DNA from: an uncultured Deinococcales bacterium
GTDB taxonomy: Bacteria; Deinococcota; Deinococci; Deinococcales; JAAFIG01
Length of the DNA: 32,156 bases
NCBI GenBank assembly: GCA_964244895.1
Contig: CAXTKV010000036.1
Location: forward strand, 1 to 32,156
Reading direction: 5' to 3'
Below, piece by piece: positions 12,201 through 32,156 of this stretch. The first letter of the stretch is position 1, and each line of letters starts with the position of its first letter. The notes beneath the pieces were generated by a model that was given only the letters and a program-made list of their open reading frames with translations, made no database searches and was not told where the DNA came from. The position numbers and the translations under genes are program-made.

Positions 12201-12833
12201 TCACTGCACCCGCGCCTTCAAGGCGTTCAAACCGTTGTCGAGGCTCTGATCCAGGGCAGCGTCGAGCAAGCCGCCGCCGAACAGCCCGCGGCTCGCGTAG
12301 CCGTTGGTGATGATGTCCGCGACGACGCGCCGGTTGACGCGGTCGTAGACGATCAGGTTGACGGTCGCGCTCGAGTCGATGGTGGTGAAGATGAACCAAC
12401 CACCGATGCTGGTGCCCGCGTACTGCATTCGGGGCAAGACCATGTATCTCGCACCGACCGCGTCCAGCACGGCATCCAACGTCTCCTGGCGGAGCGTTCC
12501 CTGAAGGTCGTACTGGTTCATGGCCGCCAGCAGATCCCCATCCATGTTCTTCGCTTTCGCCGCCTCGAGCGTCTCGTCCCTGCCTCGAGCGCCCGCGCCG
12601 AAGAGGGTCTGGAGGGCGGCCTCGGTGCGCGCATCCATGCGATCGCGCTGGTCGGGCTTGATGATGCTCAAGAAATTCCGAACCTGCATCGGTGCGGCCA
12701 CGATCCCGAACTTGGTGACGCCCGCCCGCGTGAAATCCGCCTCGATGTTCGCTCGGATGAGCGTGACCGGGGCGCACGAGACGAAGGTCAGGGCGAGCAT
12801 CGAAAGGATGACTGCTGGACGTTTGGTGGTCAT
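12201..12833 (-). CDS. Hypothetical lipoprotein (alpha/beta; CsgG/LpoB/TolB-N-like appearance)
   Basis: ATG after AGGGGAG; lipobox FVSC; pattern LDAVGARYMV..ATVNLIVYDRVNRRVV..terminal helix. Confidence 0.7.
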   Translation of the reverse strand: MTTKRPAVILSMLALTFVSCAPVTLIRANIEADFTRAGVTKFGIVAAPMQVRNFLSIIKPDQRDRMDARTEAALQTLFGAGARGRDETLEAAKAKNMDGDLLAAMNQYDLQGTLRQETLDAVLDAVGARYMVLPRMQYAGTSIGGWFIFTTIDSSATVNLIVYDRVNRRVVADIITNGYASRGLFGGGLLDAALDQSLDNGLNALKARVQ

Positions 12834-12971
12834 GGTTTCTCCCTGGTGCGACTGAGATCAGAAGTGGGTCAACGAAAGTGAGATCCGAGTGCAGGCGTGG
12901 GCCAGCATGCGACAACGAAATCCTTTCCGAGCCGCTGGCGCGGCTCGAGCGGACGAACTGTCCAGCGCGGG

Positions 12972-15458: not shown

Positions 15459-15472
15459 GCACGTTCCTCGAA

Positions 15473-17296
15473 TCACGAGCAGCCACCGGAGCACGGAACG
15501 ACCTTGAGGTTGACGACCGCCGGATTCCCATCCACGCCGCCGCCCCTCGAGCTCAGCGTCACCTGGTAATCACCCACGGCTGCGCTCGCGCCAGCCCTGA
15601 TGACGATCGCGGCGCGCGCGCTGCTCGAGAGGTCCGTGCGGTAGGTGAAACTCACCTGGTTCGCGCCCGTTCCGACGATGCCACCGGATGGCGTGATGAA
15701 TTGCAGCCCGTTGGCGGGCGTGTTGAACGGGCTGATCGGGTTCAGGTTCAGCTCGTAGAGCGCGTCCGCACCCTGCGCGATGATGTACGCGTTGCCGCCG
15801 GGGGCGTACACGGGCGAGAGCGTGAAGCCGCCGCCATTGCGCGTGACGTTGAGCTGGGCCTGACCCTCGTTGCCCGCGGCATCGCGAGCGAAGACCTCGA
15901 TCAGGGTGCTGCCGACGCTTAACGCGCTCGAGAAGCTGAAACTGCCCGTTCCGGGCAACGACTGTCGCGGGCCGCCGTTGACGCGGTACTCGAGCTGCGC
16001 GACACCGACATTGTCGTCGGCTGACCCGGTGACGGTGATGCTCGAGGCGTCGGTCGAGGCGTTGTTGGCCGGGCTGGTGATCGTCACGGTCGGTGGAGCG
16101 CTGTCCTGACTTCCGGTGGTGGCGGTGAATGCGCCGGACACCCCGCCGACGGTCAGCGTGGCGGTCGTGGCGCTCGAGTAATTCGCGCTGGTCTGCACGC
16201 GCAACTTGATGTAGGTGCCGTTGGCGACGCTGCCGCTCGCGCCCGTCCAAGCGCTGTACGTCACATCGTCGCTCGAGGTGGCGTACTCGCCTCCGCCGAT
16301 GCTGGTCGGGCTGGGCGCACTGATGCCTGTGATGCGAATGGGGTTGCTCTCGATCAGGATGCTGCGCGGTCGGTTTGTCTGGCTGGCGAAGCTGAACGGG
16401 TCGGGCGTGGTGTCGAGCGTCGACGTGGGCGTGTACGTCAGGTTGAGGCTCGCGGGTGTCTCCTGGGTCTTGGTGTCGGTGGCGAAGACCTCGACGGTGT
16501 TCGCACCCTCGATGAGCGTGACGCTGAAATTGAAGCTTGCGCTCGTCGGCAGGTTCTGGCGCGCCCCGCCGTTCAAGCGGTACTGGAGCGACCGGATGCC
16601 CTTGTCGTCGCTGACCGTGCCATTCACGTTGACCACGCTCGAGTTGGTCGTTCCACTGCTCGGGCTCGTGATCGTCACGACGGGCGGGTTGTCGATCTGA
16701 GGCGACCCCGGCGTGTACGAGAAGCTCACCAAGGCGCTGTCCTTGAGCCCCGATGCGTTCTCGGCGAAGACCTGGACGTTGTTGTTGCCGACCGCGCTGG
16801 CCACCGTGAAGTTGAAGGCGCTCGAGGCCGTGAGGGTCTGCCTCGAGCCGCCGTTCAGGCTGTACTCGAGCTTCGTGACCCCGACGCGGTCGGCGACCGT
16901 GCCGATGATGCTGAGGCTGGCGTCCGAGAAGCTCGCGCCGTTCGTGGGGCTGGCGATCAGCACGACAGGAGGGGTCGGAGAGGCGCTGCTCGAGAAGCTC
17001 GCCGTCACGCTCTGATTCTGGTTGACCGTCAGCGCGCAGCTTCCCGCACCGCTGCAGGCGCCACCCCAGCCCGCGAAGCTCGAGCCAGTGGCAGGTGTGG
17101 CGGTGAGGACAACCGCCGTGCCCGCCGCGTAGCTCGTTGAGCACGTGCTCCCGCAGTCGATCCCGGCAGGATTCGAGCCGATCGTACCGCTGCCCGTTTT
17201 CGAGACGGTGAGCGTCACTGCGGATGGCGGACTCGATGTGGGACAGGCCGTGAGGATACAGACCAGTACCCCGAGCGCGAGGTGTCGGATTCGCAT
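15473..17296 (-). CDS. Ig-repeat surface lipoprotein (divergent InlB B-repeat plus several bacterial Ig-like domains)
   Basis: ATG after AGGAGG; lipobox LTAC; LTVSKTGSG..GIDCGSTC..LTATPATGSSFAGWGGAC repeat; three PPxVxIxSP..YxxNGGxRQ..IEVFA domains; Ser/Thr rich. Confidence 0.88.
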   Translation of the reverse strand: MRIRHLALGVLVCILTACPTSSPPSAVTLTVSKTGSGTIGSNPAGIDCGSTCSTSYAAGTAVVLTATPATGSSFAGWGGACSGAGSCALTVNQNQSVTASFSSSASPTPPVVLIASPTNGASFSDASLSIIGTVADRVGVTKLEYSLNGGSRQTLTASSAFNFTVASAVGNNNVQVFAENASGLKDSALVSFSYTPGSPQIDNPPVVTITSPSSGTTNSSVVNVNGTVSDDKGIRSLQYRLNGGARQNLPTSASFNFSVTLIEGANTVEVFATDTKTQETPASLNLTYTPTSTLDTTPDPFSFASQTNRPRSILIESNPIRITGISAPSPTSIGGGEYATSSDDVTYSAWTGASGSVANGTYIKLRVQTSANYSSATTATLTVGGVSGAFTATTGSQDSAPPTVTITSPANNASTDASSITVTGSADDNVGVAQLEYRVNGGPRQSLPGTGSFSFSSALSVGSTLIEVFARDAAGNEGQAQLNVTRNGGGFTLSPVYAPGGNAYIIAQGADALYELNLNPISPFNTPANGLQFITPSGGIVGTGANQVSFTYRTDLSSSARAAIVIRAGASAAVGDYQVTLSSRGGGVDGNPAVVNLKVVPCSGGCS

Positions 17297-17471
17297 GGAA
17301 CCTCCTGCTAACGGTTGGGCTTTGGTTGTCGCGAGCGCATCGAATGGCGTTGGCTCGTGTGAGCGCAGTATGGGGTTATGAGGGTCGTGCGCGCAAGCAC
17401 AGTTGAGCCGATTTCGTTCGCAAACGTTCGCAAGTGAAGCGCCGGGTCACTTTCACGAGTTACGCTGGCCC

Positions 17472-18830
17472 ATGCCGACCTTGCGCGTTTCGGTGCTCGA
17501 AGGGAAAGTCTGGCTGGACGACAGGCTCTTACCGCTCACCAGGCGCTGGGCGCTGGTCGTAGCGCGGTTCGCTCTGGCGCGAGTCGAAGCCAAGAACAAT
17601 CCCGCGCGCGCCTTCGTCTCGGTGCTCGAGGTCGTCCGCGTGCCGGGATGGGAAAAGACGAGCGCCAAAAATGCGGGCAAGAGCCTGCAGCGCTTCGAGG
17701 AAGACAAACTCGAGAAGATCGGTGCACCGATTTTCTCTGCGGAGCACGGCGAGTGGACCAAGCAGGTGCGGCTCAATCCGGATTTCGTCACGGACATCGG
17801 GTTCGTCGAACCCATTCGGCAGGTGCGGTTGACCTTGAAAATCCCGTCGCAATCCGTCGTCCGCCGGAGCCTGATGGCGACCCATCACCTCTCCCTGGCG
17901 CAGACCGCCTTCGAACAGGGGCGGTACACTGAAGTCGAAGAGATCGTGACGAAAGCGTTGGCTGCGGATGCCACCCCGGATCAAGTGATCGAGGGTTTGG
18001 CCTTGTGGGCGTGGACGCGCGCTGTTCAGGGCGAACGCGAGCAGGCCCTGAGGTTGGTGCAGGAGTTGCAGAAAAGGGCGAGCGATTTTCACGCCTCTGG
18101 ACAAACCGTACACGCCTCGAGCCAGGCGCTCGTGTGGATTCAAACCGCGCGCTTTCACCTGCGCATGGAGGAGTGGCAACCAGCACGGCGCGCCTATGCC
18201 AAAGCGGCGACCCTGGTGCTGCCGGAGGATCATCGGGGCTGGGGTGCCCTCGAGTCGGGCTGGGGATTTCTGGCGCAGATGGCGGATCGTCTCGACGAAG
18301 CCGAACAGCACTACGAGGCGGCACTCGAGAGGTTCACCCTAGCTCGGTGGTCTTGGGGCATCCAGGTCGCCTATGGCAACTTGTGCGCAGTATGTCTGCT
18401 CCGATACGAGCAATATGAGGTCGATCAACCGGAAAAGGCGCGCGCATGCCTCGATCAGGCGATCGAGTGGTGCCTGCAGACGGTGCAATTCTCGGAAGAC
18501 ATGAACTTTGGTGGCAGCGGCAGCAACGAGATCAACCTGGCCAACGCCTACCGGATTCTCCGGCAGTTCGACAAGGCTCGCGTCTGGCTGACTGAGGCCG
18601 ACCGGTGGATCGACGCGAGCGACAACAAACCCGAGGTCGCCGGGTCACTCGCCGCACGCGCCGAACTCGAGGAGGCCGAAGGGAACCGCGATGGCGCACT
18701 AGAGCTGCTCCGTCAAGCATCGGTGATTTTCGGGGAGATCGGCAGGCACGAAACTGTGGGTCTCGTACTCGACCGTATGACACAACTCGAGGGGCAAAAA
18801 CCGATGGGGCGAGCGCTCAACTTGTGGTGA
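17472..18830 (+). CDS. TPR-repeat protein with putative N-terminal winged-helix DNA-binding domain
   Basis: ATG 17472, 5 nt after TACGCT (track start TTG 17403). N-terminus LEGKVWLDDRLLPLTRRWALVVARFA resembles OmpR/SARP wHTH starts; C-terminal two thirds are TPR-like (AEQHYEAALERF, NLANAYRIL..A, ALELLRQA). Confidence 0.75.
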   Translation: MPTLRVSVLEGKVWLDDRLLPLTRRWALVVARFALARVEAKNNPARAFVSVLEVVRVPGWEKTSAKNAGKSLQRFEEDKLEKIGAPIFSAEHGEWTKQVRLNPDFVTDIGFVEPIRQVRLTLKIPSQSVVRRSLMATHHLSLAQTAFEQGRYTEVEEIVTKALAADATPDQVIEGLALWAWTRAVQGEREQALRLVQELQKRASDFHASGQTVHASSQALVWIQTARFHLRMEEWQPARRAYAKAATLVLPEDHRGWGALESGWGFLAQMADRLDEAEQHYEAALERFTLARWSWGIQVAYGNLCAVCLLRYEQYEVDQPEKARACLDQAIEWCLQTVQFSEDMNFGGSGSNEINLANAYRILRQFDKARVWLTEADRWIDASDNKPEVAGSLAARAELEEAEGNRDGALELLRQASVIFGEIGRHETVGLVLDRMTQLEGQKPMGRALNLW

Positions 18831-18919: not shown

Positions 18920-19403
18920 CGTCCAGGACGGTCTTTTCACGCATAACCGCTCGGGTCGAACTCTTCCATTGCGTCCCCTAACACCTCCGAGACGAAGTCC
19001 CGAACCTCGCTCGCCTTCTCAATGAACGCACCGTCCACCCGGATGTCGTTCGTCTGGCCTTCGGTGATCTCGACATCGGTGTCCTCACCGAAGCGCCCTC
19101 GGATTTGAGGCTCGAGTACGGCCAACAGGTCGCGGCGGGCGGCGGTGCCGTCGAAGGTGGGCGCAGCGCTGCCTCTGGGCAGGGCGAACCTGATCGTGAT
19201 GCGTTTCTGCATTCGCGCCAGCGCGAGCCTGAGTTTACGCGATCATCGAAGCGCTTTGCCGCGCACCCTCGAGCCAGCCCGGAGGCGAGGGTATCCCAGG
19301 CAATCCGGGCAAGGCCGACGCCCACCACGGCTCAAGACGATTGAGCACGAGACGTCGTTTCCTGGCTCGCAAAGGACTAATTCTAGAAAGACCGTCCTAG
19401 ACG
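18920..19403. repeat. 17-bp inverted repeat pair (18920-18936 and 19387-19403) bracketing the 91-aa ORF
   Basis: CGTCCAGGACGGTCTTT versus AAAGACCGTCCTAGACG, 16/17 complementary. Confidence 0.7.
18937..19212 (-). CDS. Small acidic hypothetical protein, 91 aa
   Basis: Protein-like beta-alpha-beta-beta-alpha pattern; TAAACT upstream; GC-rich third codon positions. Confidence 0.6.
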   Translation of the reverse strand: MQKRITIRFALPRGSAAPTFDGTAARRDLLAVLEPQIRGRFGEDTDVEITEGQTNDIRVDGAFIEKASEVRDFVSEVLGDAMEEFDPSGYA

Positions 19404-19645: not shown

Positions 19646-19662
19646 GCGACAGGATTTGTCGC
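19646..19662. promoter_or_regulatory. Palindromic candidate operator GCGACA-N5-TGTCGC
   Basis: Perfect 6-bp inverted repeat about 140 nt upstream of the peptide gene. Confidence 0.4.
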
Positions 19663-19801
19663 AGACCCGAGGGACGATTTGAGCGAGGAGGTGTTGCCCC
19701 TGGCTCACGCGGGTTTTGCTCGGTGTTCGGTCGTCGGTTTTTGTTCGAGGACGCGGCTCATCTGCCAGGACAGTCCGCGTCCCCACCTCAATGGAGGCAT
19801 C

Positions 19802-19951
19802 ATGCAGCGTACACGTTCGTTCGTGCACGTGGTCGTCGCGTTGAGCTTGTTCGCGATGGCCTTGATCGGTGGCGTCAGCGCCACTCAATCGGTTTCGGGC
19901 TCCATGATATTCGCAGGCGACAACCCCAAGGGCGGCAGCGGCGGCGGTTGA
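19802..19951 (+). CDS. 49-aa secreted pro-peptide, candidate signalling peptide
   Basis: GGAGG RBS 4 nt before ATG 19802; MQRTRSFVHVVVALSLFAMALIGGVSA (n/h/c signal regions) followed by TQSVSGSMIFAGDNPKGGSGGG; directly upstream of a TPR regulator. The track start at 19679 is too long. Confidence 0.75.
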   Translation: MQRTRSFVHVVVALSLFAMALIGGVSATQSVSGSMIFAGDNPKGGSGGG

Positions 19952-19994
19952 ACGGCGCAATCGTAGGGGTTGCGCAGTAAACTCAAACCTCAGC

Positions 19995-21701
19995 ATGGAG
20001 AAGCACAACACCAGCTCGCCAGCATCGCGCGTTTCCGTCTCGGAAGCGCGCGATGCTGTGCGGGGGCTGGTGGCTTTGAACCAGTTCGTTGCAGCTTTGC
20101 GGACGCTCCAGCTGGCACTCGCCTCTGCTCGGAACGTGCTCGAGTGCCAGGCGGTGGCCGAGCTCTTCGAGCTGGTTCCGGAGCGAGTGCGCTCGAGCGA
20201 CCCGAGCTGGGCGGTAGTGCAGGTCAAGGCGTTGTGTTTCGCGCGGCGACCCGAGACGCTCGAGCGGGTGGCCGGGGCGGCCCTCGAGCGTTGGGGTGAG
20301 TCGGCGGGTTCGGTGCGTCCCTACCAGGCCTGGGCGCTCGCGCGGCAGCGAGCGAGCGCCCAGGAGGCGCTCGAGGTGGCGGACGCTGTGATCGCGGCGC
20401 GCGCGGGGTTTCCGTCGTCTGAGATCGGGCTGGCCTGGCGCGCGCGGGCCGAGGCTTTGGCGTGGCTCGATATCCACGGCTGGCGCGAGGCGTTCGCGCG
20501 GGCGCGGGGCCTGCTGACGGGTCGCTCGTTAGGCACGTGCCTGATCGCGGAGGGGTTCCACCTGGATCGGCGAAACGAGTCGGTGGCGGCGCGGCGGGTT
20601 TGGTTGCAGGCGGCGGCCATCCTGCGCGACCCCTACTACGAAGCCTGGGTGCAGTACAACCTCGGCATCTCGTTCCTGAAAGAGGCTGCTCCAGAGGCCG
20701 AGGCGCACTTCTTGCGCCTGGAAGGTCTGACCCGGCGCGGCGTCGGAGCAGGATTCGCGGCGCGAGCTTGGTGCGGTCTCGGGGCGAGCCGCCGCGCGCT
20801 CGGCGAGTGGGATCGGGCGCAGGGTGCTTATGCGACGGCCATCCGCTTGGCTCACGAGGATGACGATGCGCTCGAGGCCTGGCGTGGGCTGGGGCACACC
20901 CTGCGTCTTGCTGGCGATTGGGCCAGGGCACTGGAAGCCCTGCACAAGGCCGTGGAAATGGATCGGAATTGGGTGACCGAAGGGCGTTCTTGGGTGATGG
21001 TCGATTTGGCCGCCGCTCGGCTCTCGATGGGCGATGAGCAGGGTGCACGCGAAGCGCTCGATCACGCCCGCGCCGAGGACCAGGATGACCGCGACCGCGA
21101 GCGCATCGTCCGGGCCGAGTTGCACCGCCGGGCGGGCGAAGCCGACGCCGCCCTGGAGACCATGGCCGGGGTCGAGCTCGGGACGCTCTGCGCCCGAGAA
21201 GAGCAGGCGTGCTTTCCAGCGGTCTTCGCGCTCCTTGAGGCACTGACGGGCCGGGCTCCAGCAGCGCTGAAGCGCACTTCGGGCACGGTGGTCGAGGTGC
21301 GAGCGATGGGTGTGTTGGAGGTTCGCGTCAACGCTCGACGCGTGCCGATCTCTCCGACGTCGATCGTCGGGGAATTGCTCGTGTTGCTGGTACACAACGG
21401 TGGCGCGCTCAGCACCGAGGTGCTGCTCGATGCCCTCTACGCCCACCAGGGTGTCGAGCGTCGCGCCAGACAGGCGCTCTCGAAGCAGGTACGCGCGTTG
21501 CGCGAGGCGCTCGGTTGGGTGGGCAGCGTGGTCGAGGTCGGCGGCGCGTACCGCCTGGACGCGGGCGCCACTTGGCGCTACGACGTGATCCAGGCGCGCG
21601 AGGCGGGCAGACCGGTGGCGCGCTTCCTCGACGGCGTGTACCGGGAGTGGGCGCTCGAAACGGCCCGGCAGCTCGAAACCAACCCGCGCGACCTCAACTA
21701 A
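19995..21701 (+). CDS. TPR-repeat transcriptional regulator with C-terminal SARP/OmpR-like winged helix
   Basis: TPR helices (AWVQYNLG, AWCGLGASRRALGEWDRAQGAY, AWRGLGHTLRLAGDWARALEAL); C-terminal VEVRAMGVLEVRVN..ELLVLL..EVLLDALY..LSKQVRALREALG..GAYRL..FLDGVYREW. Confidence 0.82.
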   Translation: MEKHNTSSPASRVSVSEARDAVRGLVALNQFVAALRTLQLALASARNVLECQAVAELFELVPERVRSSDPSWAVVQVKALCFARRPETLERVAGAALERWGESAGSVRPYQAWALARQRASAQEALEVADAVIAARAGFPSSEIGLAWRARAEALAWLDIHGWREAFARARGLLTGRSLGTCLIAEGFHLDRRNESVAARRVWLQAAAILRDPYYEAWVQYNLGISFLKEAAPEAEAHFLRLEGLTRRGVGAGFAARAWCGLGASRRALGEWDRAQGAYATAIRLAHEDDDALEAWRGLGHTLRLAGDWARALEALHKAVEMDRNWVTEGRSWVMVDLAAARLSMGDEQGAREALDHARAEDQDDRDRERIVRAELHRRAGEADAALETMAGVELGTLCAREEQACFPAVFALLEALTGRAPAALKRTSGTVVEVRAMGVLEVRVNARRVPISPTSIVGELLVLLVHNGGALSTEVLLDALYAHQGVERRARQALSKQVRALREALGWVGSVVEVGGAYRLDAGATWRYDVIQAREAGRPVARFLDGVYREWALETARQLETNPRDLN

Positions 21702-21810
21702 ATTTGAGTCGAACGAGCGCAAGTAAAATGCGTCCGTAAAGGGCGCAATGTCGTGTTGCGACACTGCGTCGTCACCTCTCCCGTAGCCTCATCCCAGAGA
21801 GGAGGACGAT

Positions 21811-22797
21811 GTGAGCGACGAGAATTTGGTGTGGAACAAAGCCAATCGGCTGAACGAACTCGAACGCCTGCTGCGGCTGAAACCCCACACGGCGACCGAG
21901 CTGGCGAACCGCTTCGGCGTCGAGTCTCGCACCATCCAGCGCTACCTCAAAGAATACGAGGTGAACAGGGGCGCCCTCGAGCGTCAAGGGCGCAAGTACG
22001 CTATCTCATCGCATCGCCCCGAGTTCCACCCCGTCCAAGCTCTGGCGGCGCACGCGGCGGTGCGGTTGCTCTACCACCACGCTCCCGGCTTCGACGCTGA
22101 TTACCTCGGTGCGCTGCACCACTTGGCCCAGCGCTTGCCGGAACCGGCGCGCGGCCTCGCCGAGCGCAGCACCGCCGTGCTCGAGACCCGCAAGGGTCAG
22201 CCGCGCCCGGACGTGCGCGAGGCCGCGAACTTGGCGCACGTCGCCCGCGCTTGGTTTGAGCGACTCGTGTTGAATTTCTATCACACCAAACCCGGCGAGG
22301 CCGAGGAGCAGCGCGCCATCGAGGTTTACGCCATTGAGATCTCGAGATCCAACCTGGCGATGTACGTGATCGGCTTCGAGCGCGTGAAAAGCAAGAGCAT
22401 CCGTACTTTCAAGCTCTCCCGAATGCGCCACCCCGCCGTCACGAGCGAAACCTACACCATCCCAGCCGAATTTGACCCGAGCGCATACCTGTCTGATGCC
22501 TGGGGCGTGATCGGCAGGAGCGACGGCGAAACCATTTCAGTCCAGTTGCGGTTCGCGCCGGAGGCCGCGTATCGGCTCGAGGAGGGCGGCTACCCGAACC
22601 TCGAAATTACAAAGCGCTACGAAGACGGGTCGCTCGCGGTCGAGGTCACAGCGGGCACGGATCACACGGGTTTACCGCGCGAATTGCTGCCGTGGATTCT
22701 CGGCTGGGGACCGCGGGTAGAAGTGGTCGGACCGCCGAGGGTGCGCGAGAAATGGCTCGACGAAGCCAAAGAGCTGCTCCGGCGATACGCGACCTGA
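21811..22797 (+). CDS. HTH-WYL-WCX transcriptional regulator
   Basis: GTG after GGAGG; HTH TATELANRFGVESRTIQRYL; WYL core MYVIG..IRTFKLSRM; WCX LLPWILGWGPRVEVVGP. Confidence 0.93.
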   Translation: MSDENLVWNKANRLNELERLLRLKPHTATELANRFGVESRTIQRYLKEYEVNRGALERQGRKYAISSHRPEFHPVQALAAHAAVRLLYHHAPGFDADYLGALHHLAQRLPEPARGLAERSTAVLETRKGQPRPDVREAANLAHVARAWFERLVLNFYHTKPGEAEEQRAIEVYAIEISRSNLAMYVIGFERVKSKSIRTFKLSRMRHPAVTSETYTIPAEFDPSAYLSDAWGVIGRSDGETISVQLRFAPEAAYRLEEGGYPNLEITKRYEDGSLAVEVTAGTDHTGLPRELLPWILGWGPRVEVVGPPRVREKWLDEAKELLRRYAT

Positions 22798-22914: not shown

Positions 22915-25200
22915 ATGAAACCAGACCTCGCAGCGCACACCCCTCGGGATGCCACAGACCCCCACAGTCCTTGGCATGACCTCACTGAACACCTCGAGCG
23001 CGTGGCATCAATGGGGACGATCTTTGCGGCAAAGTTTGGCGGTGCAGCCATTGCGCTGCAAGCAGGTTGGTTGCACGATGCCGGAAAATGCAGCCACAAA
23101 TTTCAATCGTATCTTCTGGACGCATTCATCGCCAAGCGCGATGGGACAAACCCGCCCGAACGCGGCAAAGTCGATCACTCGAGTACAGGTGCGGTCCTCG
23201 CGGCAGAGTGGTTCGATCCAACCGGTGCCGATGGCCACAACCTTGAACTGGCCTTCGTGATCGCCGCGCATCACGGTGGACTCGACAGCGTCGGTGGACT
23301 CGAGGAACGCCTGCGCAAAAAACAAAATGATGACGTGGTCGAGGATGGCATCTTGCGGTACTTCGCCGCCTATCCCAAGATTGCCGATCAACTCGAGTCA
23401 GGAACCACACCGACCATGCCGCACTTCAGCCATCCTCGAGAACGAGAAGTGTTCGTTCGGTTTTTGCTCTCGAGCTTGGTGGACGCCGACCAACTGGACA
23501 CCGAATCGTTCGGCAGTCCGCGCAAGACGGCACAGCGCGAGGCGTACCGCGCCGGATTCGCGACGCCAAAAGAACTGCTGGTTCGCCTCGAGCGAAACCA
23601 GGCCGAATTGCAAAGCCATGCGCCGCCGACATCGCTCAACGCCGCCCGCAAAGAAATCTTTGAAGCCTGCCTCGAACAGGCGTCGCTCGCTCCAGGCTTC
23701 TACCGTTTGAGCGTCCCGACGGGCGGTGGCAAAACCCGCTCCTCACTCGCCTTCGCCCTCAAGCACGCCGTGACGCACGGCTTTGACCGCGTGATTTATG
23801 CGCTGCCCTTCCTGACCATCATCGACCAGACGGCCAAGGAGTACCGCACAATTCTGGGCGATGCCGAGGTGCTCGAGCATCACAGCGCCTTCAACCCGAA
23901 ACCGCAAACCGACGATGGAGCACAAACCGGAGACGACTGGTCGAGCCTCGCGAGCGAGAACTGGGAAGCACCGGTGATCGTGACCACCACCGTACAACTG
24001 CTGCACAGCCTGTTCGCGCGGCGCACCAGCCAGCTTCGCAAACTCCACAACATCTGTCGCTCCGTGATCGTTTTCGACGAAGCGCAATCGCTGCCCGTGC
24101 CACTGCTCGAGCCGATCTTGGACATGCTGCGCGAACTCGTGCGAGCCTACCAGGTCAGCATCGTGTTTTGCACGGCCACGCAACCTGCCTTTGAAGCCCT
24201 CAAGGTCGAAGGCATTACCGAGATCATCCCTGATCCAGCCCGCTACTACGCCACGCTCGAGCGCGTGAAGTACGATCCACTGCCCAGCGAACGTTGGGGT
24301 TGGGATCGGGTGGCCCGAGAGATGCTGGCGAGCAATCAAGCCCTGTGCATCCTCAACACCAAGAAGCAGGCTCGCGCCTTGTTTGAAGCCCTCGGCAACA
24401 AGGATGGCGCGTATCACTTGTCCACCAACATGTGCGGTGCGCATCGCCTGGACGTCCTCGAGACCATCCGGGCGCGACTGAAAGCCAGACAAGCCTGCTG
24501 GGTCGCCTCGACTCAATTGATCGAGGCCGGTGTGGACCTCGACTTCCCTCGAGCACTCCGCGCCATCGGGCCGCTCGATTCGATTGCGCAGGCGGCGGGA
24601 CGCTGCAACCGCGAGGGCGCGCTGCGTGATGAGTACGGCAACCTGACCCTCGGTCGCGTGACCGTCTTCCGCCCCGAGGAGGCCGGATCACCACAGGGTA
24701 TCTACGAAGTCGCCATGGGGATCGCCCAAGATTTTCTCGAGCAAGGCGCGGACTTCAACGATCCTGAAACGTTCAAGCGGTACTTCAAACGCCTGTACGC
24801 GCACACCAACACCGACGGCAAGGAGATTCAAAAGTACCGCAACGCGCTCGATTACCCGAAGGTCGAAGAACTCTTCAAACTCATCCCGGACGACACGCAA
24901 GCCGTGCTGATCCGAACCTACGATGCCGAGCCGGTGAACCAGATTCTCGAGGCGTTCGCTCGGGCCACCAGGCACTTCACCAGCCGCAAAGCGATCAAAG
25001 ATGTCTTCCGGGATTTGCAACCGTACTTCGTGAACATGTACGCCAAGAAATTCGAGCAGCTCAAAAACGATCCCAAAGGCTTGATCCGACCCGTCACGCA
25101 ATTCGTGGATGTCGGCATTGAACTCTACGAATGGAGCGGACAGTACAGCCCTCAATTTGGTGTGCTCGAGGCGACACAAGTCGAATCGTTTTTCTTCTGA
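22915..25200 (+). CDS. cas3: CRISPR-associated HD nuclease/helicase Cas3
   Basis: HD motifs EHL, LHDAGK, AHHGG, LVDAD; Walker A PTGGGKT; DEAQ; TAT; QAAGRCNR. Confidence 0.97.
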   Translation: MKPDLAAHTPRDATDPHSPWHDLTEHLERVASMGTIFAAKFGGAAIALQAGWLHDAGKCSHKFQSYLLDAFIAKRDGTNPPERGKVDHSSTGAVLAAEWFDPTGADGHNLELAFVIAAHHGGLDSVGGLEERLRKKQNDDVVEDGILRYFAAYPKIADQLESGTTPTMPHFSHPREREVFVRFLLSSLVDADQLDTESFGSPRKTAQREAYRAGFATPKELLVRLERNQAELQSHAPPTSLNAARKEIFEACLEQASLAPGFYRLSVPTGGGKTRSSLAFALKHAVTHGFDRVIYALPFLTIIDQTAKEYRTILGDAEVLEHHSAFNPKPQTDDGAQTGDDWSSLASENWEAPVIVTTTVQLLHSLFARRTSQLRKLHNICRSVIVFDEAQSLPVPLLEPILDMLRELVRAYQVSIVFCTATQPAFEALKVEGITEIIPDPARYYATLERVKYDPLPSERWGWDRVAREMLASNQALCILNTKKQARALFEALGNKDGAYHLSTNMCGAHRLDVLETIRARLKARQACWVASTQLIEAGVDLDFPRALRAIGPLDSIAQAAGRCNREGALRDEYGNLTLGRVTVFRPEEAGSPQGIYEVAMGIAQDFLEQGADFNDPETFKRYFKRLYAHTNTDGKEIQKYRNALDYPKVEELFKLIPDDTQAVLIRTYDAEPVNQILEAFARATRHFTSRKAIKDVFRDLQPYFVNMYAKKFEQLKNDPKGLIRPVTQFVDVGIELYEWSGQYSPQFGVLEATQVESFFF

Positions 25201-25215
25201 AGGAGGAGGTCGCGA

Positions 25216-25926
25216 ATGAATCTGGTTGAAGTCAAAGTCTGGGGCGAGTACGCCTGTTTCACCCGCCCGGAGAACAAGGTCGAGCGCGTCAGTTACGACG
25301 TGATGACACCGAGCGCGGCGCGAGGGGTGCTCGAGGGCATACTGTGGAAACCACGAATGCGCTATCGAGTGCGTGAAATTGCGGTGCTCAAACCCATCCG
25401 ACGGGCCAGCATCCTGCGGAACGAAATCAACACCGTGCAATCCGCCGGGACGGCGCAGCGTTGGCAGAAATCTGGCGGCGGGTACGCCAGCGACGAGGAC
25501 CGCGCCCAACGTCACGCGCTGGTGCTGCGCGACGTGGCCTACGTGATCCGCGCCGAAATTCAACTCACCACCATCGCCGATGCCGACGAATCGATCCAAA
25601 AATACCTGGCGATGTTCAAGCGTCGGGTCGAGCACGGTCAGTCATTCCGGCAGCCGTACCTGGGGACTCGAGAATTCAGCGCCCACTTCGCAGCGCCAGA
25701 GGCGACCGATACACCCATCGAACACTCAGATGAACTCGGACGGATGCTGCTGGACATCGCCTTCACGCCGCGCAAAAAGGGAACGCTCAAATACCTAACG
25801 CACGATGCGGCCCAAGCGCAAGTGACGCAAGGGCAGGCCACACCTATTTTCTTTCGGGCACGGCTCGAGAACGGCGTGCTTCGCGTGCCGGAGGATGAAT
25901 ACAAACGCCTCGAAGAGGTGAAGTGA
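25216..25926 (+). CDS. cas5c: Type I-C Cas5c (Cas5d)
   Basis: VWGEYACFTRPENKVERVSYDVMTPSAARG..WKP; QPYLGTREF. Confidence 0.96.
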   Translation: MNLVEVKVWGEYACFTRPENKVERVSYDVMTPSAARGVLEGILWKPRMRYRVREIAVLKPIRRASILRNEINTVQSAGTAQRWQKSGGGYASDEDRAQRHALVLRDVAYVIRAEIQLTTIADADESIQKYLAMFKRRVEHGQSFRQPYLGTREFSAHFAAPEATDTPIEHSDELGRMLLDIAFTPRKKGTLKYLTHDAAQAQVTQGQATPIFFRARLENGVLRVPEDEYKRLEEVK

Positions 25927-27779
25927 TGCTGCTCGAGCAACTGGTCGAGTATGGGCAACGCCTCGAGAAAAACGCGGACGAGGCAGGAACAGCGAGCCTG
26001 CCCTCTATGTATCAGGAGCAGCCAATCCGATGGATTCTTCATTTGGATTTGGACGGCAACCTGATCGGTGCACCGACACCGACCTCGGATGGAAGCGGCA
26101 AGAAAAACGACCGAGGTAAAAGGTACGCCACACCACACGTGATTCGCACGGTTGGCATCAAACCCAAGCTTCTTGCCGATAACGCCGAGTATGTGCTCGG
26201 TACACCAAACCTCGAGAAAAAACGCAGTGAAAAAGCGGATCCACTACGGTCGGCACTCGAGAAACACACCGCCTTCAAACTTGAGGTCGAAGCTTGTGCG
26301 GAAATCACTGGAGTCGAAGAGGTTCGCGCCGTTCAGAAATATCTGCAAGGCCTGACCGATGCCCCTTTCGTGCCACCCGAAGGTTTGAGCGCCGATGACA
26401 ACGTGAGTTTCAGTGTCAACGACGTGATGCCGTTCGCCGTACCTGCCGTGCAGACCTATTGGGCAGGTAAGTTCTCGAGTGCCGAAACTGGCAAGGAGGA
26501 TGGTTCCGCCCAAGAGGGCGCGTTCTGGGCCGAGTGCTTGATCTCAGGCGAGTTCGGCCCGGTGATGGAACGCGAACCCGTCAAAATCAAAGGCATCCCA
26601 GATGGACAGACATCAGGTATGAATCTCGTCAGTGCGAACGTCGCAGCGTTCGAGTCTTACGGATTGCACGCCTCGCAGATCGCGCCGATCAAACTTGCTC
26701 TGGCCGAAAAATACGCGAACGCGCTGAATGCTTTGTTGCGCGATCCATACACGCACCTTCGCGTCGGGCCGCTCGTGTACGCCTTCTGGACCCGCTCAGA
26801 ACCCATTCCAAATTTGGTCGAGACGCTCAAGAATCCCAAAGCAAACTCGAGGATCGCCGCCCGACGACGAGGCGAAACGCCAGCACCGCTCGAGGGCACT
26901 GCCAGGGCCGAAACCGTGCGTGACCAACTCAAAGGCATGTTCTCCGGCAAAGTGTTCGAGGTTCACAAACCCGATGCGTTCTATGGCGTGGCCCTGTCCG
27001 CAAGCGGTTCGCGGGTCGTGGTGCGCGAACACATCACCAGCACCGTGCAAGCCGTGGACGATGCGCTTTCGGATTTCTACCAGGCGCAAACCATGATCGA
27101 TGCTGAAGTCATGGGGGTGTTTGAACTTTCCGCCAGCCTCTACCGCGATGCCAGCAAAGAACTCGTCTCGAGCGTTCCAACAGCACTGATCGCCTTCGCG
27201 CTGCAACGCCGACCGTTGCCGCTCGCCTGGCTGGCGCAACTCGTGGGTCGTAATCGTGCCGAACAACGTTTGACGCGACCTCGAGCCGTGATGACCAAAT
27301 TGATTCTTGTCGCCAACACCTCACCCACGCAAAGGAGCCAATGCATGAACGAACTCAGCAAACTCAGCCCCACTCACGCCGATCCCGGCTATCAACTCGG
27401 CAGGTTGCTGGCCGCGCTCGAGAACTTGCAATACGACGCACTCGGCGACCTGAACACCACCCTCGTCGACCGATATTACGGCTCGCTTTCGAGCACACCT
27501 GTCGTGGCGTTCTCGAGATTGGTGGCGAACGCCCAAAACCACCTGTCCAAACTGCGCAAAGACCCAGGTAAGGCTGGCGCTGCAGTCAACAACGACAAAC
27601 TCTTGCAAGAGATCCTCGGACAGCTCGGCCCAAGCATTCCGAGCACCTTGACGCTTGAGAGCCAAGCCATGTTCGGGTTGGGGTTCTACCACCAACGCGC
27701 CGACCGTTTCGCCCAAATTGAGGCCGCCAAACTCGCCAAAGCCGAAAAAGCACACAACGCTCAAGGAGGCCAAGCATGA
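25926..27779 (+). CDS. cas8c: Type I-C large subunit Cas8c/Csd1
   Basis: DNAEYVLG, CLISGE, LVSAN..FESYG, YQLGRLLA.LE, FGLGFYHQ; lies between cas5c and cas7. Start is ATG 25926 (TGATG overlap) or GTG 25923. Confidence 0.95.
   Translation: MLLEQLVEYGQRLEKNADEAGTASLPSMYQEQPIRWILHLDLDGNLIGAPTPTSDGSGKKNDRGKRYATPHVIRTVGIKPKLLADNAEYVLGTPNLEKKRSEKADPLRSALEKHTAFKLEVEACAEITGVEEVRAVQKYLQGLTDAPFVPPEGLSADDNVSFSVNDVMPFAVPAVQTYWAGKFSSAETGKEDGSAQEGAFWAECLISGEFGPVMEREPVKIKGIPDGQTSGMNLVSANVAAFESYGLHASQIAPIKLALAEKYANALNALLRDPYTHLRVGPLVYAFWTRSEPIPNLVETLKNPKANSRIAARRRGETPAPLEGTARAETVRDQLKGMFSGKVFEVHKPDAFYGVALSASGSRVVVREHITSTVQAVDDALSDFYQAQTMIDAEVMGVFELSASLYRDASKELVSSVPTALIAFALQRRPLPLAWLAQLVGRNRAEQRLTRPRAVMTKLILVANTSPTQRSQCMNELSKLSPTHADPGYQLGRLLAALENLQYDALGDLNTTLVDRYYGSLSSTPVVAFSRLVANAQNHLSKLRKDPGKAGAAVNNDKLLQEILGQLGPSIPSTLTLESQAMFGLGFYHQRADRFAQIEAAKLAKAEKAHNAQGGQA
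27345..27779 (+). CDS. cas11c: Cas11c small subunit from an internal in-frame start within cas8c (144 aa)
   Basis: AAGGAG (27332-27337) lies 7 nt before in-frame ATG 27345 (MNELSKL..), just before the YQLGRLLA C-terminal domain. Confidence 0.7.
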   Translation: MNELSKLSPTHADPGYQLGRLLAALENLQYDALGDLNTTLVDRYYGSLSSTPVVAFSRLVANAQNHLSKLRKDPGKAGAAVNNDKLLQEILGQLGPSIPSTLTLESQAMFGLGFYHQRADRFAQIEAAKLAKAEKAHNAQGGQA

Positions 27780-28663
27780 AGCACCTGGAAGCCAACAACC
27801 GTCACGATTTCGTCCTGCTCTTTGATGTCCTCGATGGCAACCCGAACGGCGACCCGGACGCCGGGAATCTGCCACGAGTAGACCCAGAAACCGGTCAGGG
27901 TCTCGTGACCGATGTGGCCTTGAAGCGCAAGGTTCGCAATTACGTGGACGAACTGATGGGCGAAGATGAACGTTACAAGATTTACGTGCAACAGGGCGCG
28001 ATCCTGAACAACCAGCATCAACGGGCTTACAAAGGACTCGGTTTGACCTCCAAATCCAAGGAGGAGGCACCAGGTGTACGAAAATGGATGTGCGACAATT
28101 TCTTCGACATTCGAGCCTTCGGGGCCGTGATGAGCACCGAAGTGAATTGCGGGCAAGTTCGTGGCCCAGTACAACTCACGTTCTCGAGAAGCATCGACCG
28201 CATTCTGCCACTCGATGCCGCGATCACCCGTGTTGCCCTGACCAAATCGGATGAAAAGAACACCAAGCAAAATGACGATGGCGAAGATACTGCCCGCAGC
28301 GGCATGATCGGTCACAAAGCCTTCATTCCATACGGCCTGTATCGCGCTCACGGCTACTACGTTCCCAGTTACGCCAAAGATACCGGTTTTGACAGCGATG
28401 ACCTGGAGATCCTCTGGCGCAGCCTGCAAAACATGTGGGATTTGGACCGCAGCGCCTCTCGAGGCAGCACCGCCTGCCGTGGCTTGTACGTGTTCAGTCA
28501 CGACTCGAGCCTCGGCAACGCACCGAGTCACAAACTGTTCGGACGCATCAACATCGATCCACTCGAGGGCAAAGCGGCACGAAAGTTCCAGGATTACACC
28601 GTGCGGGTGGACGAATCGGACCTGCCCCAGGGCGTCACGTTGACCAGACTTCTCGAAGGCTGA
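27776..28663 (+). CDS. cas7c: Type I-C Cas7/Csd2
   Basis: GNPNGDPDAGNLPRVD, TDVALKRKVRNY, FFDIRAFGAVM, GQVRGPVQ, YGLY. Confidence 0.97.
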   Translation: MKHLEANNRHDFVLLFDVLDGNPNGDPDAGNLPRVDPETGQGLVTDVALKRKVRNYVDELMGEDERYKIYVQQGAILNNQHQRAYKGLGLTSKSKEEAPGVRKWMCDNFFDIRAFGAVMSTEVNCGQVRGPVQLTFSRSIDRILPLDAAITRVALTKSDEKNTKQNDDGEDTARSGMIGHKAFIPYGLYRAHGYYVPSYAKDTGFDSDDLEILWRSLQNMWDLDRSASRGSTACRGLYVFSHDSSLGNAPSHKLFGRINIDPLEGKAARKFQDYTVRVDESDLPQGVTLTRLLEG

Positions 28664-28664
28664 C

Positions 28665-29312
28665 ATGCCCGACCTCGAGCCCATCGCCCTGTCCGCGTTG
28701 CAGCATTACGCTTACTGCCCCCGGCAGTGCGCGCTGATTCACGTCGAGCAGGTCTGGAGCGAAAACGTCTACACCGAGCGTGGCGCGCGCTTGCACACCC
28801 GCGCCGACGAACCAGAGTGGGAAATGCTCGAGGGCGTGCGCGTCGAACGGGCATTGCCGCTGTACTCCGACGCGCTCAGATTGGTGGGCCGCGCTGACAT
28901 CGTGGAATTCTTACCGGATGGCACGCCGTACCCGGTCGAGTACAAGAGCGGCAAGAAAAAACGCACCTCCGATGCGACCACCGCTGAACTCACCAGACTG
29001 TGCGACGACATTCAGCTTTGCGCGCAAGCCCTGTGCTTCGAGGAGATGATGCGCGCGAGCATCCCTCGGGGCGCGGTGTACCACGCGGGCAGCAAACGCC
29101 GCCGGGAGATCATGTTCACGCCCGCGTTGCGCGCTCGCACGCTCAAGGTGATCGACGATGTGCGTGCCATGCTCGAGGCTCGGGTCACGCCCGCACCTGT
29201 GAACGACGCGCGATGCACGCACTGCTCGCTGATCGAAGCGTGCATGCCGGACTTGCCCACACTCGAGCTATTCGACCCTTTTCAGCTCGAGATGATTGAA
29301 GGTGCGCCATGA
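28665..29312 (+). CDS. cas4: Cas4
   Basis: SALQHYAYCPRQC, ADIVE, PVEYK, QLCAQA, CTHCSLIEAC (4-Cys Fe-S cluster). Confidence 0.97.
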   Translation: MPDLEPIALSALQHYAYCPRQCALIHVEQVWSENVYTERGARLHTRADEPEWEMLEGVRVERALPLYSDALRLVGRADIVEFLPDGTPYPVEYKSGKKKRTSDATTAELTRLCDDIQLCAQALCFEEMMRASIPRGAVYHAGSKRRREIMFTPALRARTLKVIDDVRAMLEARVTPAPVNDARCTHCSLIEACMPDLPTLELFDPFQLEMIEGAP

Positions 29313-30343
29313 GCACAGTGCTGAACACACTGTTTGTGCAGACCCAGGGCGCGTACCTGCACCTCGAGACGGACACCGTCCGTCTGGATGTTGAGGGCGA
29401 ACTGAAGGCCCGCATCCCGCTACACCATCTTTCCGGCATCACGGTGTTCGGACAGGTGATGCTCAGCCCGTTCCTGATCGGTCGTTGCGCGCAGGATGGG
29501 CGAGACATCACCTGGCTTTCCAGGTCAGGGCGCTTTCAAGGCCGGTTGCACGGCCCCGTCAGCGGCAACGTGCTCTTACGCAAAGCACAACACGACGCGC
29601 TGAACAACCCCAAACGCACCCTCGAGATCGCCAAACGCTTCGTGGTGGGGAAACTCCAGAACGCGCGGGGCACGCTGCTCCGCGCCGCCCGCGAAAGCGA
29701 AACCGAGAGCGATCAGACGGCGCTGCGCGACGCGGCCCGCAGCCACGCGAGCGCCATCACCTTGCTGCGCGACTGCTCGAGCCTGGACGAACTGCGCGGT
29801 GTGGAAGGCATCACCGCCAAAGCGTACTTCGCGGCGTTTACCAACCTGGTGCGAACCAACCGTGACGACTTCACCTTCACCGAGCGCAGCAAACGCCCCC
29901 CTCGAGATCCGATCAATGCATTGTTGAGCTTCACCTATGCACTCTTGACGGGTGATTGTGTCGCCGCCCTCGAGGGTGTCGGGCTCGACCCGCAAGTCGG
30001 TTTCCTGCACGTGTTGCGTCCCGGACGGCCCGCGCTCGCGCTGGATTTGATGGAAGAGTTCCGCTCGAGCCTGGCTGACCGCCTCGCGCTGACGCTGATT
30101 AACCGTGGGCAGATCACGCGAGCAGATTTCGACGAGCGTACAGGCGGCGCGTGGTCGCTCAACGAGACCGGACGCAAAACCGTGCTGGTCGCGTACCAGA
30201 AGCGTAAGCAGGAAGAAATCACCCACCCCACTACGGACAAAACCATCCCGATGGCGCTCGTACCGCACGTGCAAGCCCGACTGCTCGCCCGACACGTGCG
30301 CGGCGAATTCGAGCAATACCCGCCGTTCATCCCGAAGGTCTGA
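29309..30343 (+). CDS. cas1: Type I-C Cas1
   Basis: LNTLFVQTQGAYL, SGNVLLR, LRGVEG, RPPRDPINALLSF, GFLH, LDLMEEFR. Confidence 0.98.
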   Translation: MSTVLNTLFVQTQGAYLHLETDTVRLDVEGELKARIPLHHLSGITVFGQVMLSPFLIGRCAQDGRDITWLSRSGRFQGRLHGPVSGNVLLRKAQHDALNNPKRTLEIAKRFVVGKLQNARGTLLRAARESETESDQTALRDAARSHASAITLLRDCSSLDELRGVEGITAKAYFAAFTNLVRTNRDDFTFTERSKRPPRDPINALLSFTYALLTGDCVAALEGVGLDPQVGFLHVLRPGRPALALDLMEEFRSSLADRLALTLINRGQITRADFDERTGGAWSLNETGRKTVLVAYQKRKQEEITHPTTDKTIPMALVPHVQARLLARHVRGEFEQYPPFIPKV

Positions 30344-30345
30344 GC

Positions 30346-30636
30346 ATGGATATTCTAGTGAGCTACGATGTCAACACGGAAACCCGCGAAGGTCGCCGCC
30401 GACTGAGGCACGTAGCGAAACTCTGTCAGGCATACGGGCAACGCGTGCAATTCAGCGTCTTCGAGTGTCACGTAGACGATGTACAGTACGAAGCGCTGCG
30501 ACACAGGCTGGTGAAGGTGATCGAACCGAGCCAGGACAGCATCCGGCTTTACAAACTGCGGCAACCTCGAGATCAAAGCGTCGAAACCTACGGCATCGAC
30601 CGGTACGTGGACTTCAACGACCCGCTCGTTTTGTAA
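30346..30636 (+). CDS. cas2: Cas2
   Basis: ILVSYDV..RRLRHVAKLCQAYGQRVQFSVFEC..DSIRLY. Confidence 0.98.
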   Translation: MDILVSYDVNTETREGRRRLRHVAKLCQAYGQRVQFSVFECHVDDVQYEALRHRLVKVIEPSQDSIRLYKLRQPRDQSVETYGIDRYVDFNDPLVL

Positions 30637-30815: not shown

Positions 30816-32146
30816 GTCGAGCACGGCTTCGGTCGTGCTCGAGGATTGAAACACCGTCCCGTACGGGGTTACGGGTGATTCAGGGCGTCGAGCACGGCTT
30901 CGGTCGTGCTCGAGGATTGAAACGTGACGAACGCCTCGTATTTCTGATGGATCGGCGTCGAGCACGGCTTCGGTCGTGCTCGAGGATTGAAACGATTACT
31001 CGAGCCGTCCGGCGATGGTGGACAGCCTCGTCGAGCACGGCTTCGGTCGTGCTCGAGGATTGAAACCAGTTTTGTACCCTGAAGGCTGCAAGTGACCCGG
31101 TCGAGCACGGCTTCGGTCGTGCTCGAGGATTGAAACATCTTGAAATCAGCCTGTCGCGTGACTTCAGAGCCGTCGAGCACGGCTTCGGTCGTGCTCGAGG
31201 ATTGAAACATTCGCGACCGCGACGCGTGGCGCACCGGGCCGATCGTCGAGCACGGCTTCGGTCGTGCTCGAGGATTGAAACTGATCCTCGCCACTGGCTT
31301 TTACATGCGCGACCACGTCGAGCACGGCTTCGGTCGTGCTCGAGGATTGAAACGATGATCTCGAGCGTCGTCACCACCCCACCGCGCGAGTCGAGCACGG
31401 CTTCGGTCGTGCTCGAGGATTGAAACCCGATGCCGAGGACATCGCAAACATCGACCAGCACGTCGAGCACGGCTTCGGTCGTGCTCGAGGATTGAAACAT
31501 GCGCGAGGATCGCGCCCAGGTGCTCGAGCGCCGGTCGAGCACGGCTTCGGTCGTGCTCGAGGATTGAAACTGGATGAGCGTGTTGACGCTCGCCCCCTCA
31601 TCGCCCGTCGAGCACGGCTTCGGTCGTGCTCGAGGATTGAAACGGGTTGACCTCGAGCTGCCACGCCCTCGGGCCGCCGGTCGAGCACGGCTTCGGTCGT
31701 GCTCGAGGATTGAAACCTCTGCGCCCATTGCAACAAGCCCCGAGGCAAACACGTCGAGCACGGCTTCGGTCGTGCTCGAGGATTGAAACATTTTGTTGCA
31801 CCGCAGGGCGTGATCCCTCGAGGTCGAGCACGGCTTCGGTCGTGCTCGAGGATTGAAACAGTATCGCGCGACCGTGGACGGGCAACGCAAAAGGTCGAGC
31901 ACGGCTTCGGTCGTGCTCGAGGATTGAAACATCTATCTCAAATGCCATGTGGCCTCCAACACCGTGTCGAGCACGGCTTCGGTCGTGCTCGAGGATTGAA
32001 ACAGGGTAAACCCTGGCGCTTGTGGCGTAACCATGCTCGTCGAGCACGGCTTCGGTCGTGCTCGAGGATTGAAACTTCGAGTGGTTGGCAGAGCGCGGAA
32101 GCGCGGGGGGTCGAGCACGGCTTCGGTCGTGCTCGAGGATTGAAAC
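30816..32146 (+). CRISPR. Type I-C CRISPR array: 19 identical 37-nt repeats, 18 full spacers of 33-36 nt, continuing beyond the window
   Basis: Repeat GTCGAGCACGGCTTCGGTCGTGCTCGAGGATTGAAAC starts at 30816, 30887, 30957, 31030, 31100, 31172, 31245, 31317, 31390, 31462, 31534, 31607, 31680, 31753, 31823, 31894, 31966, 32039, 32110. It forms an 11-bp stem (one G-U pair) with a cUUCGg loop; the 3' ATTGAAAC sets the orientation. Confidence 0.99.
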
Positions 32147-32156
32147 AGCAAACCAC

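Follow-up and report, generated by a model that had tools for sequence, protein, structure and literature searches.

The RRNPP(A) systems of Bacillota (Rap-Phr, NprR-NprX, PlcR-PapR, AimR-AimP) encode a signal-like pro-peptide with a conserved C-terminal tail beside a cytoplasmic tetratricopeptide repeat (TPR) protein. Here we describe a cassette of similar design from an uncultured Deinococcales bacterium, in which a 49-residue pro-peptide and a 568-residue TPR receptor stand at the head of a type I-C CRISPR-Cas locus. The window, i.e. the whole stretch of DNA that was analysed, comprises 32,156 nucleotides (positions 1 to 32,156 of contig CAXTKV010000036.1, assembly GCA_964244895.1). We propose that the pro-peptide, the TPR/SARP regulator, a WYL regulator and the cas operon form a conserved four-part module acting as a peptide-relayed alarm loop, and give this reading a probability of about one half. 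As read from the sequences, it is carried by gene order and its conservation, by selection on the peptide tail, and by two promoter motifs, with fixed -10 spacing and covariation with recognition helices. We infer which protein binds which site, and that the peptide is secreted and bound.

In the proposed loop, single-stranded DNA (ssDNA) arising from infection or damage would activate the WYL regulator, which would switch on the peptide-receptor promoter through an inverted repeat. After export and trimming to GDNPKGGSGGG, the peptide would be taken up again. It would have to pass the two-membrane envelope of Deinococcota; oligopeptide permeases may import it, and the host genome holds 22 family-5 ABC solute-binding genes as candidates. 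The peptide-bound receptor would then switch on the WYL-cas promoter through a direct repeat, both in that cell and in neighbouring ones, so that an infected cell would warn others nearby to raise their CRISPR defence. The genes of the module, all on the + strand, are as follows.

19793..19797, +: GGAGG ribosome-binding site of the peptide open reading frame (ORF) (sequence)
19802..19951, +: 49-residue pro-peptide ORF with a signal-peptide-like N-terminal half (sequence, family screens)
19916..19948, +: predicted mature peptide GDNPKGGSGGG, residues 39-49 (tail conservation, Ala at -1)
19955..19975, +: small hairpin 3' of the peptide stop, possible attenuator or stabiliser (folding z -1.75; 55/108 family loci)
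19995..21701, +: 568-residue receptor of the C3a198 family, TPR superhelix at about residues 11-419 and C-terminal SARP-type winged helix (Pfam, model, structure match, PADLOC)
21282..21698, +: SARP/OmpR-type DNA-binding domain of the receptor, BTAD-like end shortened (model, structure match)
21480-21482, +: codon of Ser496 within the predicted recognition helix, receptor residues 488-506 (model, profile, covariation)
21811..22797, +: regulator with helix-turn-helix (HTH), WYL and WCX domains, PafBC/DriD architecture (domain matches)
22915..30636, +: complete type I-C cas operon with cas3, cas5c, cas8c, cas7, cas4, cas1 and cas2 (domain and PADLOC matches)
30816..32147, +: CRISPR array of 19 repeats, reaching the contig end (array detection)

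The receptor compared with described systems

The arrangement seen in the initial annotation, a small signal-type ORF with a GGAGG site followed 43 nucleotides after its stop by the 568-residue TPR gene, is confirmed from the sequence. RRNPP pro-peptides have 10-100 residues (PMC10075063), a range that includes the 49 residues found here; a TPR-bearing receptor and adjacent peptide and receptor genes are also shared. RRNPP pro-peptides are in addition secreted by Sec and matured, and the mature form binds the TPR pocket, which may apply to the cassette as well. RRNPP receptors have 250-500 residues and carry the effector domain, an N-terminal HTH or three-helix bundle, ahead of C-terminal TPRs (PMC9765709), whereas the receptor of the window has 568 residues and a C-terminal SARP/OmpR-type domain. 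Layouts with N-terminal TPRs are discarded by RRNPP_detector. The cassette further differs from RRNPP by its occurrence in Deinococcota, by a tail of 9-12 residues that is acidic and Gly-rich or contains Cys, and by its predicted WYL-cas target. Because of receptor size and reversed domain order, we regard it as RRNPP-like but do not file it as a member.

The TPRs match Pfam models down to E 1.4e-12. The AlphaFold2 model of the receptor is confident (pLDDT 94) and shows a TPR superhelix followed by a C-terminal domain at residues 430-568. This domain is best matched by the SARP domain of AfsR (TM 0.70, E 4e-6) and also resembles EmbR (TM 0.64-0.66; profile match E 0.009). The SARP/OmpR-like winged helix and the reversed domain order (TPRs N-terminal, DNA-binding domain C-terminal), both suggested initially, are thus supported by the model and the structure matches. 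In a search with VIA over 48,161 chains the TPR part matched RapI best (Z 23.4, root-mean-square deviation 4.1, 326 residues aligned), and it can be aligned with RapI, RapH, NprR and AimR. A Foldseek search with the whole receptor gave generic TPR matches only, and no family-specific model for the receptor was found in Pfam or NCBIfam. Homologues are about 520-580 residues long.

SARP activators such as AfsR and EmbR likewise combine an OmpR-type winged helix with initial BTAD-like helices, and use direct repeats with an 11-bp period just 5' of the -10. AfsR binds direct repeats 8 bp upstream of the -10 and is dimerised by its BTAD helices, of which a full BTAD has seven (PMC11301090). The SARP domain is normally N-terminal (PMC10972967), while that of the receptor is C-terminal and shortened: only three short helices follow the winged helix instead of the full seven, and PF03704 matched none of 45 receptor members. 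Also unlike AfsR and EmbR, the receptor has no NB-ARC/ATPase part, its SARP domain is preceded by a TPR region, and a dedicated peptide gene accompanies it.

The association of the receptor with cas genes is already catalogued as the CRISPR accessory family C3a198. The receptor matches this PADLOC profile (PDLC01092) with E 3e-100 over positions 13-517 of 523, hence at full length, and a cas operon lies downstream; it also matches PDLC01171 'TPR' with E 1e-140. C3a198 is cluster 198, listed as 'TPR protein' with three members from type III-B loci and no function (Shah et al. 2018, PMC6546367). The entries for C3a198 and PDLC01171 concern the same receptor family; as far as consulted, they mention neither a peptide nor an operator, a DNA-binding domain or a link to WYL. 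In the literature searched, which lacks most subscription papers, neither the peptide nor the operators nor the circuit turned up; the supplements of bioRxiv 10.1101/270033 may list the TPR family. The reciprocal WYL/receptor circuit and its two operator motifs, as predicted from sequence, are new here.

Conservation of the pro-peptide and the CRISPR link

The receptor profile matches 120 of 364 Deinococcota genomes, belonging to three of six families, with about a dozen weak and divergent matches among them (three candidates scored per genome, 186 matches in total). Around the stronger matches listed, 120 stretches were taken, longer contigs being favoured, which together with a second host cassette (C310) and the window give 123 receptors. 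Named homologues are all from Deinococcota, and the host suggested initially is supported by this comparison. There are 195 representatives at E<=1e-30 in a library of 1.84 billion proteins. Longer TPR-BTAD clusters of other phyla in the Atlas appear to be look-alikes, and a search for longer fused receptor forms gave four matches, each covering at most 25% of the query, which is weak evidence. Eight plasmid records with a receptor match are all from Deinococcota; no match was found in the phage collection, and none in viral contigs, the latter searched with one query. Cultured strains carrying the module are Allomeiothermus silvanus, Deinococcus proteolyticus, D. gobiensis and D. geothermalis.

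Three of the weak matches in genus g9 were inspected; they are divergent TPR and winged-helix genes with no upstream peptide, and g9 matches are not counted as members. Locus L223 has a divergent receptor with an upstream signal-type ORF containing an internal ADNTGGG-like motif, and L224 a divergent receptor followed by a WYL gene, with no peptide seen.

A signal-peptide ORF lies 5' of 107 of the 120 receptors with enough upstream DNA, compared with 9/630 other genes of the same loci at a common threshold. The search for such upstream ORFs had been proposed with the initial annotation; having been run, it upholds both the adjacency and the conserved pairing of pro-peptide and receptor. Training of the peptide profile used 92 of these peptides, which a profile-free screen had found first. 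With both screens, and one false call discarded by eye, 110/123 receptors have a peptide; three of the called peptides appear damaged. At three loci where none was called (L116, L119 and L164) the peptide is displaced downstream of the receptor. The peptide profile places the four peptides of the host genome first among 87,353 frames, all four being in the training set.

In the peptide of the window a basic N-terminus precedes a hydrophobic core, and the tail reads AGDNPKGGSGGG. Across the family, tails have 9-11 residues in 99/108 peptides (overall range 9-12) and are directly preceded by Ala in 74/108. Over three bins of receptor identity (20, 50 and 227 pairs) tail identity is 0.91, 0.81 and 0.64 versus 0.53, 0.25 and 0.13 for the linker; in the 60-80% bin the tail (0.81) exceeds the receptor (0.69) and the linker (0.25). 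Being conserved beyond both linker and receptor, the tail is marked as the working part, and these alignments show that selection acts on it. Tail conservation and the preceding Ala support, by comparison, the mature signal GDNPKGGSGGG put forward initially. In the receptor the TPR arginines R149, R266, R267, R274 and R304 are conserved and may be partners for the acidic pair of the tail.

The tails bear on where the peptide goes. It might be a cell-autonomous sentinel, exported or membrane-tethered, that reaches the receptor only if a phage blocks secretion or damages the envelope. A membrane anchor is conceivable in the many members whose conserved Ala site lies at least 12 residues beyond the hydrophobic core, and the low tail diversity, with one 11-mer common to 5 loci across species, requires no private code. 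In several members, though, the tail stands directly behind an AxA-type site that follows the hydrophobic core, as in RRNPP pheromone release, and tails vary by clade and between paralogues within one genome. We consider the sentinel improbable and prefer a released peptide.

A stable hairpin follows the peptide stop in 55/108 loci at z<=-2, compared with 10/108 control stretches. The hairpin noted earlier at 19955-19975 does form, but with z -1.75 and no U tract it falls short of significance as a single locus. An Rfam scan of the locus gave 0 matches, and no conserved upstream ORF was found in the leaders of the family loci. Contigs of one RNA run cover the homologous locus L107 almost evenly, a bin over most of the peptide gene being uncovered; DNA carry-over may account for this coverage. 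An upstream start at TTG 19679, which would lengthen the frame to 90 residues, was rejected because the paralogue and homologues begin at an ATG behind GGAGG.

Downstream, where at least 3 kb are available in the fetched stretches (n=107), the next gene is WYL in 76 cases; cas genes are present in 69, both in 64, and cas genes or an array in 73. Among the cas loci are types I-C and I-E, further type I systems and III-like ones. By these comparisons the cassette is real, conserved and CRISPR-linked, in line with the CRISPR connection drawn in the initial annotation. The remaining loci sit before unrelated genes, and Cys-ended peptides are mostly found beside non-CRISPR neighbours (11/13). The Cys-tailed clades and some Gly-tailed ones that precede unrelated genes within the window's own family are what one would expect of a cassette that regulates something else and hitch-hikes beside cas operons; with an association across three families and several cas types, and two promoter motifs tying the cassette to the WYL-cas unit, we regard this as very improbable.

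The host genome carries two further, paralogous cassettes, C310 with a Gly tail and a WYL gene at the contig end, and C41 with two peptides. In C41 (G000:C41, L155:2276-2658) the paralogous receptor comes with a tandem of two unlike Cys-tailed peptides, whose CxxC may close a disulphide ring. At L207 and L208 an orphan peptide gene with its inverted repeat lies directly 5' of a type I-E WYL gene, the receptor being lost. A CRISPR array and leader lie just 5' of the peptide promoter at L073, L074, L082, L086, L087, L091 and L103, where the peptide mRNA is apparently leaderless, its start being 39-40 nucleotides from the palindrome. Many type I-C loci of family f5 encode WYL and Cas3 as a single in-frame fusion of about 1,080-1,130 residues (L071, L075-L077, L081, L082, L086, L087, L095, L103 and L107; L227:7784-11038).

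Acyl-homoserine lactone (AHL) quorum-sensing systems control CRISPR. The agr quorum sensing of Staphylococcus aureus likewise alters cas expression (PMC12462963). In those cases a global quorum system acts on cas indirectly, whereas the cassette of the window is dedicated and encoded within the cas locus.

Two promoter motifs and the predicted circuit

The promoter elements of the window are as follows.

19646..19662, +: inverted repeat GCGACA-N5-TGTCGC in the peptide-receptor promoter, predicted to bind the WYL activator (PafBC/DriD geometry)
19673..19678, +: weak -10-like hexamer GACGAT, 10 nucleotides past the inverted repeat (NAnnnT at offset 10 in the family)
21717..21733, +: third conserved palindrome RCKCA-N7-TGMGY, about 40 nucleotides 5' of the direct repeat (19/80 loci versus 3.5 shuffled)
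21758..21774, +: direct repeat GCGACA-N5-TCGTCA with 11-bp period, predicted receptor operator (family motif)
21784..21789, +: -10 hexamer TAGCCT of the WYL-cas promoter, 9 nucleotides past the direct repeat (fixed spacer in seed matches)

The inverted repeat GCGACA-N5-TGTCGC is present 5' of the peptide in 37/108 loci versus 1.4 in shuffled sequences. An NAnnnT hexamer stands exactly 10 nucleotides past the relaxed repeat in 45/53 loci. A matrix combining the repeat, N10 and the -10 scores in 57/82 WYL-bearing loci, compared with 1/26 others and 1/324 shuffles. PafBC is activated by ssDNA and recognises tGTCgg-N10-tA-N3-T, PafB reading the GTC with two Arg residues four apart (PMC8635444), and DriD binds the palindrome CGAC-N7-GTCG (PMC12041258). 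The WYL protein of the window has the HTH-WYL-WCX architecture of both, and both site geometries, including a GTC-containing site 10 nucleotides upstream of the -10, recur at the peptide promoter. Unlike PafBC and DriD, this WYL protein is encoded by one gene beside a cas operon and is predicted to target a signalling cassette instead of DNA-repair genes, and the -10 is weak (SAnnnT). In 12 loci the WYL helix lacks the second Arg; there, in 12/12 cases, another palindrome takes the place of the standard repeat at unchanged spacing. The inverted repeat keeps G at base 1 irrespective of the receptor helix, even where the direct repeat has T.

By analogy with PafBC and DriD (PMC8635444, PMC12041258), the WYL regulator may sense ssDNA. 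The cassette was initially proposed as a candidate for quorum sensing. The dedicated peptide/receptor pair of that proposal is conserved, but its cell-density sense is probably too narrow because the peptide promoter has a site typical of ssDNA-activated WYL activators. The same analogy points to a peptide signal triggered by damage or infection; as peptide production would hinge on damage, the module resembles an alarm more than a plain census.

When viral contigs were scanned with the inverted-repeat pattern, 120 loci matched; none has a convincing peptide, and they were treated as chance. A third, distant WYL gene of the host (G000:C266:1107) has a perfect CCGACA-N5-TGTCGG just upstream, which is likely autoregulatory.

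The motif 5' of WYL reads KCGACA-N5-KCGACA-N9-TAnnnT, with 9 nucleotides between repeat and -10 in 40/40 seed matches although 8-10 were permitted. Counting a TGGAC variant that was added after the data were seen, it occurs 5' of 72/79 receptor-adjacent WYL genes and of 11/14 further WYL genes of the receptor-bearing families f3 and f5, one of which adjoins a broken receptor. It was found at 0/26 WYL genes from receptor-less lineages; five genomes of such lineages, checked in full, hold no full-length receptor. The 11-bp period and the 9 nucleotides to the -10 agree with the direct repeats about 8 bp before the -10 that are typical of SARPs, and suggest binding by the receptor. Base 1 of the half-site tracks receptor residue 496 in 66/69 loci (Ser with G, Trp or Tyr with T; 3 ties left out). 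No receptor column does better, though this one shares the top rank; among WYL columns the maximum is 63/69, at a position outside the WYL HTH. In the host genome the top two matches of each promoter matrix are the two expected promoters, both in the training sets. The palindrome RCKCA-N7-TGMGY is found 39-41 nucleotides 5' of the direct repeat in 19/80 WYL promoters versus 3.5 in shuffles. At L172, L174, L176 and L169 the WYL protein has long HTH insertions (up to about 40 residues) and the standard operator is kept.

Genus g13 and its kin offer a natural experiment that supports receptor binding to the direct repeat. Their type I-E WYL proteins are 83-91% identical, and the half-site is TCGAC where a receptor with a QAIWPH-type helix is adjacent but TGGAC in five loci with no adjacent receptor. 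Each of the five genomes has one full-length receptor, and the four helices read are of the KALWE type, which goes with TGGAC.

Several observations weigh against the alarm loop. The TPR fold match is unspecific: OGT (Z 22.3), LGN (22.2) and MalT domain III (21.2) lie within about 2 Z of RapI, so the fold does not single out RRNPP. No upstream peptide is present at 13/123 receptors, 3 of them at contig edges, and neither cas genes nor an array at 34/107 loci. The covariation of residue 496 with base 1 loses its significance after correction for kinship (5 and 3 tree changes; sign test p 1), the link of residue 497 with base 2 is equalled by a WYL column, and the switch of the WYL helix is one clade and one evolutionary event. 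The five TGGAC loci might instead owe their half-site to a type I-C WYL that their own genome supplies in trans. The promoter logic common to both halves was partly set after the data were seen, through the TGGAC variant. Downstream of receptors lacking WYL, the direct repeat occurs in 1/31 cases (0.4 expected), or 6/31 versus 4.4 in relaxed form. Finally, both motifs contain a CGAC half-site, so one protein could read both.

Some of these points would also suit a WYL protein that reads both motifs, for autoregulation and for the peptide operon, while the receptor binds the peptide and acts elsewhere or by protein contacts: the common half-site, the lack of the direct repeat at receptor loci with no WYL, and the tree-corrected covariation. 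Against it, the direct repeat is missing from the 26 WYL loci of receptor-less lineages, and near-identical WYL helices are found with different half-sites. Base 1 of the inverted repeat, moreover, stays G even beside a direct repeat with T, and the inverted repeat changes only with the WYL helix. We rank this arrangement low, a little below even the sentinel, and consider it probable that WYL and receptor are reciprocally wired, whichever the sign of the peptide's effect.

This sign is the weakest step, and activation is modestly favoured because the shortened SARP end lacks most BTAD helices, so that oligomerisation driven by the peptide would supply tandem binding. With the same wiring and the opposite sign, the apo-receptor would activate WYL-cas and the re-imported peptide would shut it off, serving as a delay timer or an 'already alerted' signal like AimP or Phr. 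Rap, whose TPR fold is the closest, is inhibited by its peptides. Gene order and promoter evidence fit either version equally, and a positive loop between WYL and receptor has to be shut off somehow. Among RRNPP peptides there are both activators and inhibitors (PMC9765709). Receptor loci that have no peptide often retain WYL, which is compatible with either sign, and tails common to several species would suit a public alarm over a private timer. We consider the inhibitory version unlikely, although it is the most serious competitor of the activating alarm loop.

A more far-reaching proposal is that Deinococcota have independently built a peptide pheromone for immunity: a cell sensing phage DNA by its WYL protein would broadcast a short, partly cross-species peptide, and uninfected neighbours would pre-induce CRISPR-Cas, with a readable code of protein-DNA recognition on both arms. 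We put this forward tentatively, below the alarm loop itself. If true, the alarm loop would give a function to C3a198, an orphan family of CRISPR accessory proteins, and would show one-component peptide signalling outside Bacillota. Whether infected bacteria can alert those around them to step up adaptive immunity becomes testable: the candidate ligand is a purchasable 11-mer, the two predicted operators are defined to the base, and cultured carriers exist. A peptide-inducible SARP activator would also serve as a tool for these genera.

Neighbouring genes

Divergent from the cassette lies an ORF of 91 residues (18937-19212, - strand) with no match in Pfam or NCBIfam. Further upstream, a 475-residue gene (17403-18830) combines an N-terminal winged-helix-like region with TPRs and has a relative in L151. 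It was rejected as a member of the receptor family, its likeness being in the TPRs only. This gene is divergent from a cluster of secreted type at 9602-17296, which contains Ig-like domains, an M23 peptidase with a ricin-type lectin, and an amidase.

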